NCBI GenBank assembly: GCA_013334245.1
Contig: JAAXXZ010000003.1
Coordinates: 2 to 64,001 of the forward strand
Source: Candidatus Moraniibacteriota bacterium
Lineage (GTDB): Bacteria; Patescibacteriota; Minisyncoccia; Moranbacterales; UBA1568
Reading direction: 5' to 3'
Length of the DNA stretch: 64,000 nt
The translations under genes were made by a program, and so were the position numbers. The notes beneath the pieces are model-generated. The model worked only from the letters and a program-made list of their open reading frames with translations. It did no database searches and was not told where the DNA came from. Below, one piece after another: positions 3,594 to 43,803 of the stretch (position 1 is its first letter; each line of letters starts with the position of its first letter).

Positions 3594-3620
3594 TTAGCAC
3601 TCAGACTTGACGAGTGCTAA
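3594..3620 (+). promoter_or_regulatory. CIRCE operator (HrcA binding site) upstream of hrcA
   Basis: Perfect consensus TTAGCACTC-N9-GAGTGCTAA (ttagcactc agacttgac gagtgctaa). Confidence 0.92.
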
Positions 3621-3635
3621 TCAAGCATTTATACT
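3607..3635 (+). promoter_or_regulatory. sigma70-type promoter overlapping CIRCE (-35 TTGACG, 17-nt spacer, -10 TATACT)
   Basis: ttgacg at 3607-3612 (inside the CIRCE right half), 17 nt, tatact at 3630-3635. Same architecture as the dnaK promoter at 6071-6099. Confidence 0.7.
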
Positions 3636-3755: not shown

Positions 3756-4490
3756 ATGAATGAACGACAGAAACAAGTACTCGCCGCGATCGTCGAGGAA
3801 TATAGCAAGACCGCCGTACCGGTCGGGTCCCAGCTCCTGTTGGAGCAGTACGGATTCGAGGTGTCTTCGGCGACCCTGCGCAACGATATGCTCGCGCTCG
3901 AAAAAGCCGGGATGCTCTATCAGCCGCATACCTCGGCCGGGCGCATCCCGACCGACAAAGGGTATCGGTTTTTCGTCGAGGAGATCATGCCGGACGAGTC
4001 GCTCTCGCTTTCCGAACAGAAGTCGATGCAGAAGGAGTTGTTGACGCTTCGCGCCAAACATACCCGTCTGGGTCGCAGCACCGCAAAACTCCTGTCCGCG
4101 CTTTCGGGGAACCTGGCCGTCGCCGGTCTCGGTGATAACGAAGGATTGTATGATTTCGGCATGAAGGAACTGCTGGAGAACCCGGAGTTCCGCGAACTCG
4201 ACGAGCTCTGCCGGTTGGTGGAGGCTCTCGATTCGCTCGATGAGAAGTTCGATACGATCCTGGCGGAACTTTCCCAGGGCGAGACGAAGATCTTCATCGG
4301 TAAGGAAAATCCGATCGCCGAGATATCGAACTGTTCCATGATGGTCGCGCCGTACGAGAACGAGGAAGGTCGGGGAATCCTGGCGATCATCGGTCCGAAG
4401 CGGATGCAGTATGCCAAGAACAAGTCCCTGCTGGAACACATGCGCAAACTCCTGTCCGCCTCGCTCGTCCTGATCATATTCATACGATAA
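3756..4490 (+). CDS. hrcA: heat-inducible transcription repressor HrcA
   Basis: 244 aa. The N-terminus MNERQKQVLAAIVEEYSKTAVPVGSQLL...SSATLRNDM is the HrcA winged-helix signature. Preceded by CIRCE. Confidence 0.9.
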   Translation: MNERQKQVLAAIVEEYSKTAVPVGSQLLLEQYGFEVSSATLRNDMLALEKAGMLYQPHTSAGRIPTDKGYRFFVEEIMPDESLSLSEQKSMQKELLTLRAKHTRLGRSTAKLLSALSGNLAVAGLGDNEGLYDFGMKELLENPEFRELDELCRLVEALDSLDEKFDTILAELSQGETKIFIGKENPIAEISNCSMMVAPYENEEGRGILAIIGPKRMQYAKNKSLLEHMRKLLSASLVLIIFIR

Positions 4491-4518: not shown

Positions 4519-5415
4519 ATGCCGAAACACAAGGAGACAACGGAGGAGCCGAATTTCCGGTTCGAACTGTCTGCGAAGGCGGTCGTCGTCGGACCCGACG
4601 GGAAAGTCCTGATTCTGACCCGCTCCAAGCATGAGACGAGCGCGCAGGGGAAACGGGATTTGCCCGGAGGGAGCGTGGATTCGGGGGAAACGGTGGAGGA
4701 GGCGGTCCGGCGAGAAATCATGGAGGAAGCCGGTCTTTCCGTGACGGGCATCGCTCCGCTTCCGGTCTATCGACATACGAAGACGGGTGAAAGCGAACTG
4801 CAGCGGGTTCGGTTCGTAGCGTTCTCCGATTCGAACGATGTGACGCTTGATCCGATGGAGCATTCCGAGTTCGAATGGCTCACCCCCGACGAGGCGATTG
4901 CCAAGCTGTCTGACAAGGGATTCGAAGCGGATAAGCGAGAGTCGGTCATGCGGGCCAAGGAGTATATGGAGCTGCAGGATTCCCTTGGGGGATGGAAGCG
5001 GTGCCTGGCGGACTTTGATAACTACAAGAAGCGGCAGGAGGCTTCGCAGAAAGAGATGGGGCAGTATCTGGTGGAGCGGCTCCTGAACGACCTGGTTCCG
5101 GTACTCGACAATTTCCATGCGGCGGCGTCCCATGTTCCGGAAGAATCGAAAGACAATCCCTGGGTCGTTGGTATCGGGTATATCGAAAAGCAGCTCGAGG
5201 ATACGCTTGCCCAGCACGGGGTTCGCGTCATCGAGGTGAAAGAGGGTGATGCGTTCGATCCGAGCCGGCACGAGGCTTTGAGCGACAGCTCGACAGAGGC
5301 GGAAGAAGGGGAGGAAGGGGACGAACCGAAGGGGCACGTGATCGCCAAAGTCCTGCAAAACGGATACATGATAGGAGATAAAGTCGTCCGGGCGGCGAAG
5401 GTAGCCGTAAAGTAG
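4519..5415 (+). CDS. grpE: GrpE nucleotide exchange factor with an N-terminal Nudix hydrolase domain (Nudix-GrpE fusion)
   Basis: 298 aa. Residues about 1-150 carry a full Nudix box GSVDSGETVEEAVRREIMEEAGL (G-x5-E-x7-REU-x-EE-x-GU). Residues about 150-298 are canonical GrpE (ADFDNYKKR, VLDNFHAAA, DPSRHEAL, GYMIGDKVVRAAKVAV). Single uninterrupted frame. Confidence 0.85.
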   Translation: MPKHKETTEEPNFRFELSAKAVVVGPDGKVLILTRSKHETSAQGKRDLPGGSVDSGETVEEAVRREIMEEAGLSVTGIAPLPVYRHTKTGESELQRVRFVAFSDSNDVTLDPMEHSEFEWLTPDEAIAKLSDKGFEADKRESVMRAKEYMELQDSLGGWKRCLADFDNYKKRQEASQKEMGQYLVERLLNDLVPVLDNFHAAASHVPEESKDNPWVVGIGYIEKQLEDTLAQHGVRVIEVKEGDAFDPSRHEALSDSSTEAEEGEEGDEPKGHVIAKVLQNGYMIGDKVVRAAKVAVK

Positions 5416-5460
5416 TCAGAAGTCTATAAAGTCGAAAGTTGAAAGTCGGTTAAGTCGGAT

Positions 5461-5510
5461 TTCTCCCTTTCGGAAAAGGGAGTACCCGGTAGTCCTGGGG
5501 GAGGGATTTG
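5461..5510 (+). repeat. repeat family 1, copy B
   Basis: ttctccctttcggaaaagggagtacccggtagtcctgggggagggatttg. Confidence 0.6.
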
Positions 5511-5530
5511 AATCGTCAGAAAATCCCCCT

Positions 5531-5650
5531 GTCCCATCTTGATATGGGACGTCCCCCTTTTTCAAAGGTGGAAATCGGTGGTCGTCGACGTTTACGGTGC
5601 ATCTCCCTTTTGTAAAGGAAATATACGGTAGTCCGGGGGAGAGATATGTA
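5531..5650 (+). repeat. repeat family 1, copy C (two hairpins, degenerate tail)
   Basis: gtcccatcttgatatgggac hairpin, ccccctttttcaaaggtgg hairpin, then ctcccttttgtaaaggaaatatacggtagtccgggggagagat. Confidence 0.5.
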
Positions 5651-5681
5651 TGAAGAGGTCAGGCGTTTATAAAACAAATAT

Positions 5682-6014
5682 ATGATCACCTACGAGGATT
5701 TCGAGAAGGTGGATATACGGATCGGGACGGTGACGGCCGCCGAGGAGTTTCCCGAGGCGCGGAAGCCTGCCTACAGGCTGACGATCGATTTCGGTCCGGA
5801 TGTTGGCATCAAGAGGTCATCCGTGCAGATTACGAAACGGTATGCGAAGGACGAGCTGGTTGGGAGGCAGGTGATGGGGGTCGTGAACTTCCCGCCGAAG
5901 CAGATAGGCCCGTTCATTTCCGAAGTGCTGACGCTGGGGTTTTCGGACGAGAACGGGGAAGTCGTGCTGGCCGTTCCGGACAAGCCGGTCCCGAACGGAA
6001 AGAACATGTTTTGA
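5682..6014 (+). CDS. csaA: CsaA-like protein (tRNA-binding/EMAP fold), putative export chaperone
   Basis: 110 aa, same size as B. subtilis CsaA. Motifs DFEKVDIRIGTV and GRQVMGVVNFPPKQIG are typical of the Trbp111/CsaA tRNA-binding domain. Sits inside the chaperone operon. Confidence 0.65.
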   Translation: MITYEDFEKVDIRIGTVTAAEEFPEARKPAYRLTIDFGPDVGIKRSSVQITKRYAKDELVGRQVMGVVNFPPKQIGPFISEVLTLGFSDENGEVVLAVPDKPVPNGKNMF

Positions 6015-6057: not shown

Positions 6058-6084
6058 TTAGCACTCTCACTTGACGAGTGCTAA
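6058..6084 (+). promoter_or_regulatory. second CIRCE operator, upstream of dnaK
   Basis: ttagcactc tcacttgac gagtgctaa, a perfect TTAGCACTC-N9-GAGTGCTAA. Confidence 0.92.
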
Positions 6085-6099
6085 GACAAAATCTATAAT
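6071..6099 (+). promoter_or_regulatory. sigma70-type promoter for dnaK (-35 TTGACG, 17 nt, -10 TATAAT)
   Basis: ttgacg 6071-6076, 17-nt spacer, tataat 6094-6099. The -35 lies inside the CIRCE right half. Confidence 0.75.
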
Positions 6100-6113: not shown

Positions 6114-6420
6114 GGTATGGCTCCCCGCAAAGCTTCCGAAGTTGGTCGGAGAATATACTCCGCCACTGTCACGGAAACGCCTGCGGCTTAGCCGGAAGAT
6201 AAAGAGTAATCGATAATAAGAAGCTCGCGGGGTGCTCATATTTGTAGCATTTCGCGGACTCAGGAAGAAAGGTATGGCTCCCCGCAAAGCTTCCGAACTC
6301 GGTGAGAGAATATACTTCACCATTGTCACGGAAGCGCCTACGGCTTAGCCGGAAGATAAAGAGTAATCGATAATAAGAAGCTCGCGGGGTGCTCATATTC
6401 GTAGCATTTCGCGGACTCAA
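6114..6420 (+). repeat. tandem duplication (2 x about 157 bp) forming the dnaK 5-prime leader. Each unit carries a 24-codon uORF.
   Basis: Unit 1 6114-6270 and unit 2 6271-about 6419 are about 90% identical. The uORFs are atg 6117..tag 6191 and atg 6274..tag 6348 (MAPRKASE...). Copy 2 is preceded by aggaagaaagg. Confidence 0.8.
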
Positions 6421-8354
6421 TGACGAATATGGCAAAGATACTCGGAATTGATCTCGGGACGACGAACTCGGCGATGGCTATCGTCGAAGGCGGAAGCCCG
6501 TCGATCGTGGAAAACAAGGAAGGCAACCGGACGACCCCGTCCATGGTGGCCATTTCCAAGACGGGCGAACGCCTGGTCGGACTCCTGGCCAAGCGGCAGG
6601 CGGTCACGAACCCGGGCGACACGCTCTTCTCGATCAAACGGCTCATCGGACGCCACTTCAATGACGAGGAAGTGCAGCGTGACCTGAAGACCCTGCCGTA
6701 CAAGATCATCCAGGCGGGTGAGGGGACGAAGATCGTCATGGGCGGCAAGGAATACACCCCGCAGGAAATCTCGGGAATGATTCTCGGCAAGCTCAAGGCC
6801 GATGCGGAAGAGAAGCTCGGCGAGAAGATCACCGAAGCGGTCATCACCGTTCCGGCATACTTCGACGATTCCCAGCGCAAGGCGACGATGGAGGCCGGCG
6901 AGATCGCGGGCCTCAATGTGCGCCGCATCATCAATGAGCCGACGGCGGCCGCGCTCGCGTACGGGTTCAACAAGAAGAAGGACGAGAAGATCGCGGTCTA
7001 TGACCTCGGTGGCGGTACGTTCGACATCTCGATCCTCGAGGTGGCCGAAGACACCGTCGAGGTGAAGTCCACCAACGGCGACACGCACTTGGGAGGTGAC
7101 GACTTCGACCAGCGCATCATGCACTGGATCCTCGACGAGTTCAAGAAGCAGGAAGCCATCGACCTCAGTAAAGACCCGCTCGCGCTCCAGCGTATCAAGG
7201 AAGCGGCCGAAAAGGCGAAGATCGAACTCTCGACCGCGCAGGAGTCCGAAATCAATCAGCCGTTCATCACGAGCGGTGCCGACGGACCGAAGCACCTCGT
7301 CATGAAGCTCACCCGGGCCAAGCTCGAAGAGATCGTGCATGACCTCGTGGAAGCGACCCTCGTGCCGGTCAAGAAGGCACTTGCCGATGCGAAGCTCGAT
7401 GCCAAGGATATCAACGAGGTGGTGCTCGTCGGCGGTATGACGCGCATGCCGCTCGTGTTGGCGACCGTGGAGAAATTCTTCGGCAAGAAACCGAATATCT
7501 CGGTCAATCCGGACGAGGTTGTCGCGATGGGTGCGGCGATCCAGGGCGGCGTGCTCGAAGGGTCGGTCAAGGACGTCTTGCTCCTCGATGTCACCCCGCT
7601 CACGCTCGGTATCGAGACCATGGGCGGCGTGCGCACCGCGCTCATCGAACGCAATACGACCATCCCGGCGTCCAAGTCGCAGACCTTCTCGACCGCGGCG
7701 GACAATCAGCCATCCGTCGAGATCCACGTCTTGCAGGGCGAGCGCGAGATGGCCGCGGACAACAAGTCCCTCGGACGGTTTATCCTCGACGGCATCCCGC
7801 CGGCGCCGCGCGGCATCCCGCAGGTCGAAGTGACCTTCGATATCGACGCCTCGGGCATTCTCTCCGTCACGGCCAAGGACAAGGCGACCAACAAGAGCCA
7901 GTCCATCCGTATCGAGGCCTCTACCGGTCTCAAGGACGAGGAGATCGAGCGCATGAAGAAGGATGCCGAACTCCATGCCGAGGAGGACAAGCACAAGAAG
8001 GAACTCGTCGAGGCGCGCAATATCGCCGACACGCTCTCCTACACGACGGCCAAGGCGATAAAGGATGCGGGCGACAAACTGACCGAGGACGAGAAGAAGC
8101 CGGTCGAAGAAGCCATCGCCGAGCTCGATAAGGTCAAGAACGGCGACGACCTTGAGGCCATCAAGAAGGCGAGCGAAACCCTCTCCGAAGCGGCACAGAA
8201 GATCGGCGAGAAACTCTATGCTGCGGCTCAGGCTGCCAACGAACAACCGACAACTGACAACTCACAACAGGGAAGCGGAACATCGGATTCGGAAGGAGCG
8301 AAGGACGCCGAAGTGGACGATAGCGCCCCGGCAGGTGAGGAGGAAAAGAAGTAG
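6420..8354 (+). CDS. dnaK: molecular chaperone DnaK (Hsp70)
   Basis: 644 aa with [21 protein letters not shown] and other canonical Hsp70 motifs. Acidic C-terminal tail ending EEKK. Confidence 0.97.
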
Positions 8355-8410: not shown

Positions 8411-9475
8411 ATGGCATTCGCACCAGTTCCAAGAGAGTCAAAAGAACAGATAAATAAGGCTGGAGCATCTCTTGTGAGTAATCCCAATGATAAAGTGGCG
8501 CTTGACTTAGCAAATAGATGGAGGGCATGTCACGCTTATCCTATCAACACTTTTAATGCAACATTAAGAATTAAATCTAAGGCTTTTAATGAATCAGTGA
8601 TTGTTGCGCAACGTTTGAAGCGCATGCCAACGATTGTTGACAAATTGAAAAGATATCCATCCATGAAACTTGCCCGGATGCAAGATATCGGCGGATTGAG
8701 AGCTGTTTTGACTTCAACAAAGTGCGTGTATGAATTGGCGTCATCATACAAAGATACTCGATTTAGGCATGAACTTGTAAACGAAAAGGATTATATTAAA
8801 GAACCGCGAGATGAAGATGGATATAGAAGTATACATTTGATTTTTAAATATAAGGGAGCAAATAGTATTGCTAACAAGTACGATGGACTATTATTGGAAC
8901 TACAGATTCGAACTAAGTTACAACATATTTGGGCGACTGCAGTCGAAACCATGGGAACCTTTCTTGGCCAGGCTTTAAAAGCACGTCTTGGCGATAAAGA
9001 GTGGCAAGATTTTTTTGCTCTTGTATCGTCAGCGTTTGCTATTTCTGAAAGAATGCCCGTTCTTCCACGGCATCGGGAGTTGTCTAAAGAAGATATATAC
9101 AGAGCAATTCAAAAGGCTAATGAGGAACTCGGCGTGTTGGAAAGAATAAAGGGATATGCAGTAGCTGTTGAGGTTATTAGCAATAGACCAGACTCTTCAA
9201 GGAGAGGACATTCATATCATCTGGTGGTTCTGAATTCGGATGCAAGGAGCGTGCAAGTTAAGTCATATAAAAAGGGAGCTGTAAAACAAGCACTGGAGGA
9301 TTATTCTAATATCGAAAATCGAGCTTTAAATGGAGAAAAGATTGAAGCGGTTTTGGTTTCTGCTGGCGGGCCGCTAGCAGTGCTTCGACAAGCTTACCCA
9401 AACTTCTTCCTAGATATTAAAGATTTCGTCGGAAAAATCGAGGATATTGTTAGAAAGGCAAAAAACTTAAAATAA
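8411..9475 (+). CDS. RelA/SpoT-domain nucleotidyltransferase (small alarmone synthetase-like, toxSAS/CapRel-like) with about 150-aa C-terminal extension
   Basis: 354 aa. Synthetase-domain motifs RMQDIGGLRAV (D-x-G-x-R), DGYRSIHLIF (GY-S-H) and ELQIRTKLQHIWA (E-QIRT). The gene sits in an AT-rich island (about 8395-9650) immediately after the dnaK terminator. Confidence 0.8.
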   Translation: MAFAPVPRESKEQINKAGASLVSNPNDKVALDLANRWRACHAYPINTFNATLRIKSKAFNESVIVAQRLKRMPTIVDKLKRYPSMKLARMQDIGGLRAVLTSTKCVYELASSYKDTRFRHELVNEKDYIKEPRDEDGYRSIHLIFKYKGANSIANKYDGLLLELQIRTKLQHIWATAVETMGTFLGQALKARLGDKEWQDFFALVSSAFAISERMPVLPRHRELSKEDIYRAIQKANEELGVLERIKGYAVAVEVISNRPDSSRRGHSYHLVVLNSDARSVQVKSYKKGAVKQALEDYSNIENRALNGEKIEAVLVSAGGPLAVLRQAYPNFFLDIKDFVGKIEDIVRKAKNLK

Positions 9476-9651: not shown

Positions 9652-10458
9652 ATGGATATTCAGACCGTCTTCGATAAGGGTATAAAGCCAGTGAACGAGG
9701 ATTCGCTCTTGGTAGCGGATCCGATTTTTGGCGTGTTCGACGGCGTTTCCGTACTGGAACCTGGGGCGCCGCGAGAGGACGGGCTGACCGGAGCGGCTAT
9801 CGCTTCAAGAATCGCGAAGAATGTCTTCTCATCTAGGGATGGTGCCCTGGTCGAGTCGGCTCTTCAAGCGAATGACGCTATCCGAAAGGCGATGGAGGAG
9901 AATGGCATTGATTGGAAAAGAAAGACGGCACAATGGGCGACGACGGCGTCGGTTATCCGTATCGGGAACGGTTCGTTCGACTGGCTCCATATCGGGGACA
10001 GCGTCGTGATGGTGGTTATGAATGACGGATCCTGCAGGGTTCTTGGAAGCGGGCATGGGCAGGACCGGGAAATCTTGATCGAATGGAAAAAGCTTGCCGA
10101 TCAGGGGATTGAGAATATACGTGAGGCACTGTCGGACTCGATGTCCGCGGCGCGCAACGGTGAAGCTAATTATGGTGACCTGGACGGCGATCCTAATATA
10201 GAACGCTATCTGGAACATGGGACGGAGTCACTTGAAAATGTGCGTCACATTCTTCTCTTTACGGACGGACTCGTGATGCCGAAAGAAGATCCCGCATCAG
10301 ACGACGATTTACATCGCTTCGTCGATATGTTCGAGAAGGATACATTGGAAGGACTTCGTGACCATGTACGAACTCTCGAAGATGCCGATCCGAAATGCTG
10401 GAAGTACCCCCGATTCAAACAGCACGACGACATCGCTGCCGTCGCCATATCATTCTAA
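9652..10458 (+). CDS. PP2C-family (PPM) serine/threonine protein phosphatase
   Basis: 268 aa with FGVFDGVS, LHIGDSVV, LLFTDGLV and C-terminal DDIAAVAI, the conserved PPM metal-binding Asp motifs. Confidence 0.75.
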   Translation: MDIQTVFDKGIKPVNEDSLLVADPIFGVFDGVSVLEPGAPREDGLTGAAIASRIAKNVFSSRDGALVESALQANDAIRKAMEENGIDWKRKTAQWATTASVIRIGNGSFDWLHIGDSVVMVVMNDGSCRVLGSGHGQDREILIEWKKLADQGIENIREALSDSMSAARNGEANYGDLDGDPNIERYLEHGTESLENVRHILLFTDGLVMPKEDPASDDDLHRFVDMFEKDTLEGLRDHVRTLEDADPKCWKYPRFKQHDDIAAVAISF

Positions 10459-17110: not shown

Positions 17111-17536
17111 ATGACCGAAGAAACCGGGATGCTTTCCGATTGTTTCTATAGGACGAGTGCCAAGGCTATGATTCTCGATGAAGGGGGGCGGTTCTTGCTC
17201 ATGCTCGAAAAGAAAGGTGTGTGGGAACTTCCTGGAGGAGGCTTGGATTTCGGCGAGAGTCCGCAGCAGTGTCTTGCCCGTGAGATACAAGAAGAAATGG
17301 GGCTCGAGGTGGTCCACATCGCCGAGAGGCCGAAGTATTTTCTGACGGCCCCGCGGAGGGACGGCCAAGGCTGGATCGCGAACATCATCTACGAGGTACG
17401 GGTCGCGAATCTGGATTTCGTACCGTCGGACGAATGCGTGGAAATTCGGTTTTTCACGGCGGTAGAGGCGTCGAAGGAGAACCTCCTCCCGCACGTGAGG
17501 GAGTTCGTGAAACTGTTTAATCCGACGCGGGAGTGA
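17111..17536 (+). CDS. Nudix hydrolase
   Basis: 141 aa. The Nudix box is GGGLDFGESPQQCLAREIQEEMGLEV. Confidence 0.85.
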   Translation: MTEETGMLSDCFYRTSAKAMILDEGGRFLLMLEKKGVWELPGGGLDFGESPQQCLAREIQEEMGLEVVHIAERPKYFLTAPRRDGQGWIANIIYEVRVANLDFVPSDECVEIRFFTAVEASKENLLPHVREFVKLFNPTRE

Positions 17537-43242: not shown

Positions 43243-43803
43243 ATGAAATATATGCGTGAAACGATAGTAACCCTTTTCGAAGCCATAGCTCCGTTCGATG
43301 AACTCGAACGGGAGCATCGAAATGACACGCTCGAGTGGATACGGAGCGGCGCGGAGATATTCCGCATCGCCAAGCCGGATACCCCGCCGAAACATCTGAT
43401 TTCGTATTTTGTCGTAGTGGATCCGCGAAACGAGTCGATTTTGCTGGTGGACCATATCAACGCCGAAAAGTGGCTTCCGACCGGCGGGCATGTCGAGCTC
43501 GGCGAGAACCCGAAAAGAACCGTGGAGCGCGAATCGATCGAAGAGCTCGGAATGAAAGCCGAATTCCTGTTCGATCATCCGATATTCGTTTCACAGATGG
43601 TGACGGTCGGAAAGGCTGCCGGTCACAGGGATGTCTGTCTGTGGTACGTTATCAGGGGAGACGTCGACGATACGATCACCTATGAGAAACGGGAATTCAA
43701 CGGGGTCAGGTGGTTTACGTTCGATGAGGTGCTGGAGACCGACGTCGCCGAGCTCGACGAACATCTCCATCGGTTCGTGTCGAAACTGAAAACGTTATTA
43801 TGA
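43243..43803 (+). CDS. Nudix hydrolase
   Basis: 186 aa. The Nudix box is GGHVELGENPKRTVERESIEELGM. Confidence 0.8.
   Translation: MKYMRETIVTLFEAIAPFDELEREHRNDTLEWIRSGAEIFRIAKPDTPPKHLISYFVVVDPRNESILLVDHINAEKWLPTGGHVELGENPKRTVERESIEELGMKAEFLFDHPIFVSQMVTVGKAAGHRDVCLWYVIRGDVDDTITYEKREFNGVRWFTFDEVLETDVAELDEHLHRFVSKLKTLL

Follow-up and report, generated by a model that had tools for sequence, protein, structure and literature searches.

What does an enzyme domain do at the front of a heat-shock co-chaperone? The question is raised by a gene of a Candidatus Moraniibacteriota bacterium, found in a 64,000-nt stretch of contig JAAXXZ010000003.1 (hereafter the window). This gene occupies the grpE slot between hrcA and dnaK, begins 28 nt past the hrcA stop codon and encodes, in one open reading frame (ORF), a Nudix domain followed by GrpE, the nucleotide exchange factor of DnaK. 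With about even confidence, we propose that the product is an ordinary DnaK nucleotide-exchange factor with an attached accessory MutT-like Nudix hydrolase, heat-shock-regulated and standing in place of the acidic tail of GrpE. Residue numbers are those of the 298-aa fusion protein, L and P numbers denote the homologous loci and the related proteins that were collected, and the coordinates of all features are given in Table 1.

The two-domain protein and its relatives

A first-pass annotation of the window had described a single uninterrupted frame of 298 codons, with a complete Nudix box within the first 150 or so residues and characteristic GrpE strings behind it. All of this was recovered: the frame at 4519-5415 runs from ATG to TAG, every defined consensus position of the Nudix box fits at aa 51-73, and the quoted strings are present in the protein. 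Profile searches confirmed both domains, with non-overlapping matches above the Pfam cutoffs to NUDIX (PF00293, aa 17-131, 71.3 bits against a cutoff of 21.1, E 1.1e-19) and to GrpE (PF01025, aa 146-297, 117.1 bits against a cutoff of 25.8, E 8.3e-34, profile positions 24-163 of 165). The best NCBIfam GrpE equivalog remained below its cutoff (86.5 versus 137 bits), as expected for a divergent protein of the candidate phyla radiation (CPR). The fusion protein is identical to the NCBI entries NTW30715.1 and NTW89519.1, which bear the name 'nucleotide exchange factor GrpE' and are assigned to Candidatus Moranbacteria bacterium.

The protein was modelled as a monomer with AlphaFold2 (AF2) from an 83-sequence alignment (mean predicted local distance difference test score, pLDDT, 87.3; predicted template modelling score, pTM, 0.64). 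Residues 15-129 form a compact Nudix fold, with pLDDT values per 10-residue block mostly between 86 and 98, and the terminal helix of this fold leads directly into the GrpE stalk as one continuous helix (aa 134-204). The stalk is followed by helix 214-232 and by the strands of the beta-wing (235-297); block means in the GrpE half are mostly 79-95, and the acidic loop of the wing falls below 50 at aa 262-268. When the N-terminal half was compared to the PDB with Foldseek, the best match was the MutT-related protein 3GRN of M. mazei (E 1.5e-11, TM(target) 0.77, 26% identity). The catalytic domain of NudC/NUDT12 (NudC E 1e-10), BdRppH, NudI and NUDT15 were also matched, and hundreds of Nudix structures follow.

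The C-terminal half matches solved GrpEs in sequence (4ANI, 3A6M, 1DKG, 8GB3 and mitochondrial GrpEL1). Its invariant G218 is aligned opposite E. coli G122, the grpE280 site, and the C-terminal GY..G...R.A.V strand also matches; the aligned range of the E. coli sequence agrees with the 1dkg match. All GrpE elements are present in the C-terminal 150 aa. This core is canonical and lies in the only grpE slot seen, so that in these cells the fusion protein most probably serves DnaK as its exchange factor; no second GrpE was found within the 64-kb window. We also considered whether M149, preceded by AAGGAG, could be an internal start yielding a free GrpE isoform. This candidate was rejected: the Met is not conserved, being mostly Leu in homologs, and the AAGGAG consists of conserved Lys-Glu codons.

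Unfused GrpEs of the same clade are 175-200 aa long and 55-66% identical to the GrpE half of the fusion. They carry an N-terminal tail of about 33 aa in which Asp and Glu make up 30% of the residues, and 14 of 50 such tails contain an acidic-hydrophobic-hydrophobic motif reminiscent of E. coli EEIIM. In E. coli, the canonical substrate site in the substrate-binding domain of DnaK is where the GrpE tails bind, and they promote the release of substrate (PMC12915176); in the M. tuberculosis complex GrpE also controls the DnaK substrate-binding domain (PMC10803776). A 2025 review presents GrpE as a disordered N-terminus, a stalk, a short helical domain and a wing, with enzyme fusions unmentioned (PMC12987570). 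The fusion protein has no disordered N-terminal tail and carries the folded Nudix domain instead, which bears out the suggestion that the one replaces the other. The same annotation had called the GrpE part N-terminally truncated; this holds for the tail but not for the stalk helix, which is as long as in the unfused sisters. Indeed, the helix segment directly before ADFxNYKKR can be aligned between fused and unfused GrpEs, so that the stalk is not truncated and the tail alone is replaced.

Since the window is a single metagenome-derived sequence, a frameshift, a lost stop codon or a chimeric assembly could have brought a Nudix gene and grpE into one frame. When 5.8 billion proteins were searched, 196 relatives were found, drawn for the fused forms from NCBI, JGI, ENA and Logan. 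The 90%-identity clusters listed, 120 in number, include 86 with a length of 274-449 aa; for 85 of these 86, both Pfam domains are annotated, at identities as low as about 34%. A profile search of 50%-identity representatives likewise placed dozens of full-length two-domain proteins in the top 150. In all, independent assemblies and pipelines have yielded more than 140 related proteins with the Nudix-GrpE architecture. The order hrcA-[nudix-grpE]-(hsp20, csaA or nothing)-dnaK is kept at eight fused loci (L081, L082, L084, L090, L094, L095, L004 and L005), among them contigs of about 0.35-1.2 Mb (L081, L082, L084), and holds at 40-70% identity; the JGI contig of L081 measures 1.18 Mb and the contig of L082 486 kb. 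M1 and 17 other positions are invariant in the 83 aligned sequences, including G50, G51, R65, E69, A164, F166, N168, P194, N198 and G218; the junction helix is conserved and purifying selection acts over the entire frame. Because the same two-domain frame recurs in independent assemblies, the fusion is not an assembly artefact, and this explanation is refuted for practical purposes. The worry about a frameshift or missing stop, for which read mapping had been proposed, was thus settled by the exact protein in NCBI and the recurrence of the frame, and the search of related genomes for the same fusion gave a clear positive result.

In a scan of genome collections, most of the matches listed were ordinary GrpEs, and a Nudix part was present in L001-L005 alone among them. 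A search for homologs of the Nudix domain only gave one protein, P0051, which lies on a 900-bp contig and is probably a truncated fused gene. Some taxonomic labels of these loci look wrong. L001 (DATMYW010000001.1) is filed as Candidatus Fimivivens (Oscillospiraceae), yet its HrcA and DnaK are 98% and 96.5% identical to those of the window; L004, L005, L006, L008 and L024 are labelled Micavibrio or Bdellovibrionales, and several of them have a DnaK 76-85% identical to that of the window and a CPR-like gene order. From DnaK and HrcA identity and gene order, L001, L004-L006, L008 and L024 group with the Moranbacteria window, and their source labels are unreliable.

Turnover of the N-terminal module

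In a tree of the GrpE half, fused and unfused proteins are interleaved. Six pairs of proteins have GrpE cores that are about 95-97% identical while one member carries the tail and the other a Nudix domain, the similarity breaking directly before EYLxDLKR (e.g. P0030/P0071). Among fused proteins, the identities of the two halves are weakly correlated (Spearman 0.25), and Nudix domains 28-39% identical to each other occur on GrpE cores that are 95-99% identical. P0010 and P0021, for instance, share 96% identity in GrpE and 30% in Nudix, and P0037 and P0050 share 99% and 39%, respectively; the query and P0002 show the opposite pattern (Nudix 90%, GrpE 71%). A threefold difference in rate cannot yield 99% versus 39% identity, and recombination or allelic replacement is therefore required. 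Several types of module can be distinguished: type A, found in the query; type B, found in P0020 and P0021; a tandem A-B form with both boxes intact (P0004, P0015); and a further tandem Nudix form (P0121, P0023, P0138).

The exchange can be followed in the DNA. L090, which is fused, and L089, which is not, were both recovered from metagenome ERZ27283041, and their flanks are 87-92% identical. They differ by a clean in-frame swap of 402 bp (Nudix) for 114 bp (tail), extending from about 7 codons into the gene to the start of the stalk; the first ~7 codons of the leader are homologous in DNA to the 5' start of tail-bearing grpE alleles. Similarly, L095 (A-B) differs from L001 (A) by a clean in-frame B module of 447 bp. 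At the gene level, the window and L001 are 95.6% identical in hrcA and 95.8% in dnaK but 64.7% in the Nudix part and 79% in the GrpE part, whereas L001 and L095 are 80.4% identical in hrcA, 96.8% in Nudix and 90.5% in GrpE. Taken singly, such cases could be chimeric short metagenome contigs; the pattern repeats over independent pairs and assemblies. As read from these alignments, the N-terminal module is optional and exchangeable between very close relatives. That near-identical cores bear either a tail or differing Nudix domains argues against a tightly co-adapted mechanistic coupling of the module to the exchange core.

Fusion of two adjacent genes was considered and is not supported as the origin of the architecture. 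In unfused relatives (L006-L009, L024, L085), hrcA is directly followed by a tail-bearing grpE and no stand-alone Nudix gene lies between them. The module is not always of the Nudix type. Among GrpEs that score high on the family profile, P0243 carries a DUF3850/ASCH-like domain and P0216, P0174 and P0182 Cys-rich CCG-repeat segments, P0172 has an N-terminal domain of about 140 aa of no assigned family in the position of the tail, and P0232 has a box-less N-terminal segment that we read as Nudix-like, without a Pfam match.

Such diversity could mean that the N-terminus of GrpE in Moranbacteria-like CPR bacteria is a recombining cassette site, at which folded modules directed at nucleotides or RNA repeatedly take the place of the DnaK-binding tail. 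DnaK-GrpE would then be a delivery or scaffold platform bringing enzymes to or near DnaK and its clients, and would parallel, in bacteria, the multi-domain Hsp70 co-chaperones of eukaryotes; the locus might be under diversifying selection. We regard this generalisation as improbable. Less probable again is a role in conflict, in which selection at the 5' end of grpE would be diversifying or balancing, for instance if phages or partner organisms exploit DnaK-GrpE or nucleotide signals, and the Nudix domain would be a defence or counter-defence effector. The co-occurrence of fused and unfused alleles in ERZ27283041, the mosaic identities among the window, L001 and L095 and the several types of module, including non-Nudix ones, are what such conflict would produce, as would a full-length PADLOC defence candidate (PDC-S33, RelA_SpoT) right after dnaK in the window. 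But related populations that occur together commonly recombine, and do so without any conflict, and chimeric metagenome contigs could account for some of the mosaicism. Moreover, the PDC-S33 neighbour is not conserved at other fused loci, and the PDC-S07 match of the Nudix half is a generic Nudix match.

The Nudix active site and its possible role

If the module is exchangeable, is it still an enzyme? In the 83 aligned sequences, R65 and E69 of the Nudix box are invariant and E57, E66, E70 and G72 are conserved in at least 90%. The [RK][ED]xxEE core is kept in 143 of the 153 Nudix domains of 147 GrpE-fused proteins; the 10 exceptions comprise four single substitutions, of which the E70K of P0001 is one, the fragment P0081 and about five distant lineages in which the box is destroyed. 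For the Nudix part, ratios of nonsynonymous to synonymous substitution (dN/dS, Nei-Gojobori) range from 0.15 to 0.28, against 0.05-0.09 in the GrpE part; all are to be taken as rough values because dS is saturated. The Nudix box is thus intact, conserved and under purifying selection, and the domain is probably an active pyrophosphohydrolase. The closest relative of the fusion protein, P0001 (NTW30627.1, 94% identical), carries E70K, a change of the second Glu of the REx2EE core. This substitution is expected to impair catalysis and could be a real variant or a sequencing error.

Alternatively, the Nudix fold may have a non-catalytic role, as a structural cap, as an element for dimerisation or for sensing temperature, or as a folded stand-in for the pseudo-substrate tail, the catalytic residues being historical. 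Non-enzymatic Nudix sensor domains do exist, such as that of NrtR, and the lineages with a destroyed box (P0139, P0148, P0152, P0162, P0163), the box-less P0232 and the E70K of P0001 can all be accommodated in this way. Yet 93% of the domains retain the full core, even at identities as low as about 35%, the dN/dS ratios lie well below 1, and the boxes of both domains are complete in the tandem forms. A non-catalytic role fits the few degenerate lineages only, and as an account of the family we consider it very improbable.

We favour instead an in-frame replacement of the disordered acidic tail by a catalytically competent MutT-like Nudix pyrophosphohydrolase module. The protein would dimerise through the GrpE stalk and so present a pair of Nudix domains at the stalk tip, which is where the tails of E. 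coli GrpE start out towards the substrate-binding domain of DnaK. Its GrpE core would swap ADP for ATP on DnaK as usual, while tail-mediated substrate release would be lost or replaced. The Nudix module would hydrolyse a nucleoside-diphosphate-X relevant under stress, candidates being damaged or non-canonical nucleoside triphosphates (NTPs) or dinucleoside polyphosphates such as Ap4A, and the fusion would give the enzyme obligatory heat-shock co-expression, a dimer scaffold and proximity to DnaK. The module would be a bolt-on accessory that is not allosterically integrated into exchange; we favour this because cores that are almost the same accept a tail, a single Nudix domain of type A or type B, or a pair of Nudix domains.

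Several points weigh against this proposal. The retention of the fold with loss of the catalytic residues in about five distant lineages (those named above) is more in keeping with a structural or binding role than with an enzymatic one. The relative orientation of the Nudix and GrpE parts is uncertain in the monomer model, as its pTM of 0.64 indicates. In the cases seen, the Nudix domain is always in frame and never a separate neighbouring gene, which hints that tethering itself is selected, and a bolt-on accessory does not explain why. Finally, no NCBIfam Nudix equivalog was matched at its cutoff: all scores were far below, the best partial matches being to the MutT-TenI type, NudG, NudB, NudC and MutT.

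Substrate assignment was attempted through these equivalogs, through sequence and fold neighbours in the PDB and through motifs downstream of the box, and none of the subfamily thresholds or motifs was reached. The first-pass annotation had tied the domain to an enzyme class acting on Ap4A, NDP-X or (p)ppGpp-type alarmones; no subfamily model or motif points to one of these. The best NCBIfam Nudix match, PRK08999 (MutT-TenI type), scored 53.8 bits against a cutoff of 245, and the MutT, NudG and NudI equivalogs were also below cutoff (TIGR00586, 36 versus 97.9 bits; PRK10546, 40.7 versus 156; NudI, 30.9 versus 95), as were NudC (PRK00241, 35.9 versus 158) and the RppH models (19.5-29.9 bits versus cutoffs of 116-241). 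Nudix Ap4A hydrolases have a tyrosine 16-18 residues after the box. No tyrosine stands at +16 to +18 here: counted from L73, positions +15 to +18 are occupied by K, T, G and E, and the sole nearby tyrosine is at +11. On reading the sequence, the ADP-ribose-type proline and the NADH motif are absent downstream of the box, and the zinc domain and SQPWPFPxS motif of NudC are absent from the 298 aa; the structural likeness to NudC is confined to its catalytic domain. A stand-alone relative, P0253 (377 aa), has two tandem Nudix domains and a C-terminal segment that we read as similar to a MazG-type NTP pyrophosphatase, without a Pfam match. Its domain content hints that the free-standing cousins of the family may be house-cleaning NTPases.

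These results also bear on the explanation that we rank second and hold to be rather unlikely, namely that the Nudix domain acts directly on a nucleotide controlling the DnaK cycle. It might destroy DnaK-binding Ap4A or other dinucleoside polyphosphates in heat, hydrolyse the released ADP and so make exchange irreversible at low energy charge, or tune the stalk and thermosensor through nucleotide binding to the Nudix domain. Such coupling would agree with the fusion being always in frame, via a rigid continuous helix and never as a separate gene, with the conserved catalytic core and with heat-shock control of the gene. Furthermore, Ap4A accumulates on heat shock and binds DnaK, GroEL and ClpB (PMC7705103), and the Nudix domain takes the usual place of the tail, which contacts the substrate-binding domain of DnaK (PMC12915176). 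Against it, GrpE cores that are 95-99% identical go with a tail, Nudix A or Nudix B, with no visible co-adaptation, and the existence of Nudix types only ~30% identical and of tandem pairs speaks against one dedicated ligand. The absence of the Ap4A-hydrolase tyrosine and of the ADP-ribose and NADH motifs, as read from the sequence, points the same way. In the solved GrpE-DnaK complexes (1DKG, 4ANI, 8GB3), the stalk tip is far from the nucleotide cleft, and channelling of a small diffusing nucleotide is therefore unlikely.

The heat-shock locus and comparison with known systems

Table 1. Coordinates of the fusion gene, its parts and the surrounding heat-shock locus in the window.
Feature	Position	Strand	Residues or length	Basis and remarks
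CIRCE operator 1, TTAGCACTC-N9-GAGTGCTAA	3594-3620	+		0 mismatches; upstream of hrcA
sigma70-like promoter TTGACG-17-TATACT	3607-3635			overlapped by CIRCE 1, upstream of hrcA
hrcA, heat-shock repressor	3756-4490	+	244 aa	TIGR00331, 216.6 bits (cutoff 197.2); Pfam HrcA
nudix-grpE fusion ORF	4519-5415	+	298 aa	uninterrupted ATG-to-TAG frame
N-terminal leader	4519-4560	+	aa 1-14	low pLDDT; upstream breakpoint of L090 versus L089
Nudix domain, type A module	4561-4911	+	aa 15-131	PF00293; AF2 pLDDT; Foldseek 3grn
Nudix box GSVDSGETVEEAVRREIMEEAGL, catalytic motif	4669-4737	+	aa 51-73	exact fit to GX5EX7REUXEEXGU
Single predicted helix	4918-5130	+	aa 134-204	AF2 DSSP and alignments; Nudix C-terminal helix, then GrpE stalk, then first bundle helix
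Module-swap breakpoint, immediately before GWKRCLADFDNYKKR			near aa 150-158	alignments
GrpE domain: stalk, helical bundle, beta-wing	4954-5409	+	aa 146-297	PF01025; PDB 4ani (E 3e-15), 3a6m, 1dkg
Acidic insertion loop in beta-wing, STEAEEGEEGDEPKG	5287-5337	+	aa ~257-273	low confidence; variable in alignment
csaA-like gene, tRNA-binding-fold chaperone	5682-6014	+		TIGR02222, 155.4 bits (cutoff 119.65)
CIRCE operator 2	6058-6084	+		0 mismatches; upstream of dnaK
Promoter TTGACG-17-TATAAT	6071-6099			overlapped by CIRCE 2, upstream of dnaK
dnaK, partner Hsp70	6420-8354	+	644 aa	Pfam HSP70, 843 bits

The window contains two perfect copies of the CIRCE element (controlling inverted repeat of chaperone expression); the number expected by chance is 0.00, and 100 shuffles yielded no match. 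These sites, the sigma70-like promoters that they overlap and the position of the locus place the fusion gene in the HrcA heat-shock regulon, and it should be heat-inducible under HrcA control. An hrcA-grpE-dnaK operon had been proposed for this locus. The slot between hrcA and dnaK was indeed found, but the csaA-like gene and the second CIRCE/promoter (6058-6099) separate grpE from dnaK, so that there are probably two heat-shock transcription units: hrcA-nudix-grpE-csaA together and dnaK on its own CIRCE promoter. The interval between grpE and dnaK is variable, with csaA in the window, hsp20 in many relatives and nothing in L082, L088 and L090 (compared with L081, L084, L085, L094, L004, L005 and L008), and small chaperone genes thus seem to have a general insertion site in this operon.

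The 266-bp non-coding gap between grpE and csaA (5416-5681) contains a threefold AAAGTCG repeat at 5428-5448 and GC-rich palindromic stretches; it gave no Rfam match and no terminator call. The dnaK leader, from CIRCE 2 and its promoter to the dnaK start, is filled by a 157-bp tandem duplication (6114-6419; 1.9 copies, 93% identical) without an Rfam match, and Rfam gave no match anywhere in the operon.

Directly after dnaK lies a gene for a 354-aa RelA_SpoT-domain protein (8411-9475, +), the full-length match to PDC-S33 mentioned above (E 8e-117), and the next ORF encodes a PP2C-type phosphatase (9652-10458, +). A (p)ppGpp link through this neighbour of dnaK was considered and rejected, since the neighbour is absent from other fused loci; the RelA_SpoT/PP2C pair is not present 3' of dnaK in L081 and L082. 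Two stand-alone Nudix ORFs with intact catalytic motifs lie elsewhere in the window, at 17111-17536 (+, 141 aa) and 43243-43803 (+, 186 aa), the first being 38% identical to the fused Nudix domain over 73 aa. The genome thus has further Nudix enzymes beside the fused one.

Both domains belong to textbook families; what is new here is their combination, the placement of the enzyme instead of the tail and the modular turnover. To our knowledge, there is no precedent for a bacterial GrpE that carries an enzyme, and a full-text search of the literature found no paper describing or discussing a Nudix-GrpE protein or an enzyme-bearing bacterial GrpE. The databases already hold the fused proteins, under the name 'GrpE' and with both Pfam matches recorded. 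GrpE is regarded as architecturally uniform (disordered tail, stalk and wing), and a tail-for-enzyme variant proves to be widespread. Sister species that carry either a tail or a Nudix domain on near-identical cores provide a natural experiment on the function of the tail. If our proposal is true, this would be the first bacterial Hsp70 exchange factor shown with a catalytic module, and it would offer a concrete route back to the old link of stress nucleotides such as Ap4A to DnaK. It may also illustrate how genome-reduced CPR bacteria wire accessory enzymes into one of their few regulons through in-frame fusion.

Compared with known systems, the protein resembles the canonical GrpEs of E. coli (1DKG), G. 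kaustophilus (4ANI), T. thermophilus (3A6M) and M. tuberculosis (8GB3) in its stalk, bundle, beta-wing, G122 equivalent, hrcA-dnaK slot and CIRCE, and differs from them in having, instead of the disordered acidic tail, a folded 115-aa Nudix domain on a continuous helix. With small MutT-like Nudix hydrolases (3GRN, NudI, NudG/ORF135, NUDT15, the NudC catalytic domain and BdRppH) it shares the fold and the complete box; in contrast to these, it reaches no cutoff of a characterised subfamily and is fused to a co-chaperone rather than free-standing. Other Nudix fusions, such as NrtR (Nudix-wHTH, a winged helix-turn-helix partner), NadM-Nudix and the MutT-TenI type (PRK08999), also use Nudix as a module of multi-domain proteins. 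Their fusion partner differs, and, unlike in NrtR, the Nudix box of the GrpE fusion is intact. Among eukaryotic Hsp70 co-chaperones, BAG proteins occur with ubiquitin-like domains and CHIP with a U-box ligase. Neither the folds nor the lineages are related, and the likeness is one of analogy only: in each case, a second module, functional or enzymatic, is attached to a protein docking on Hsp70.

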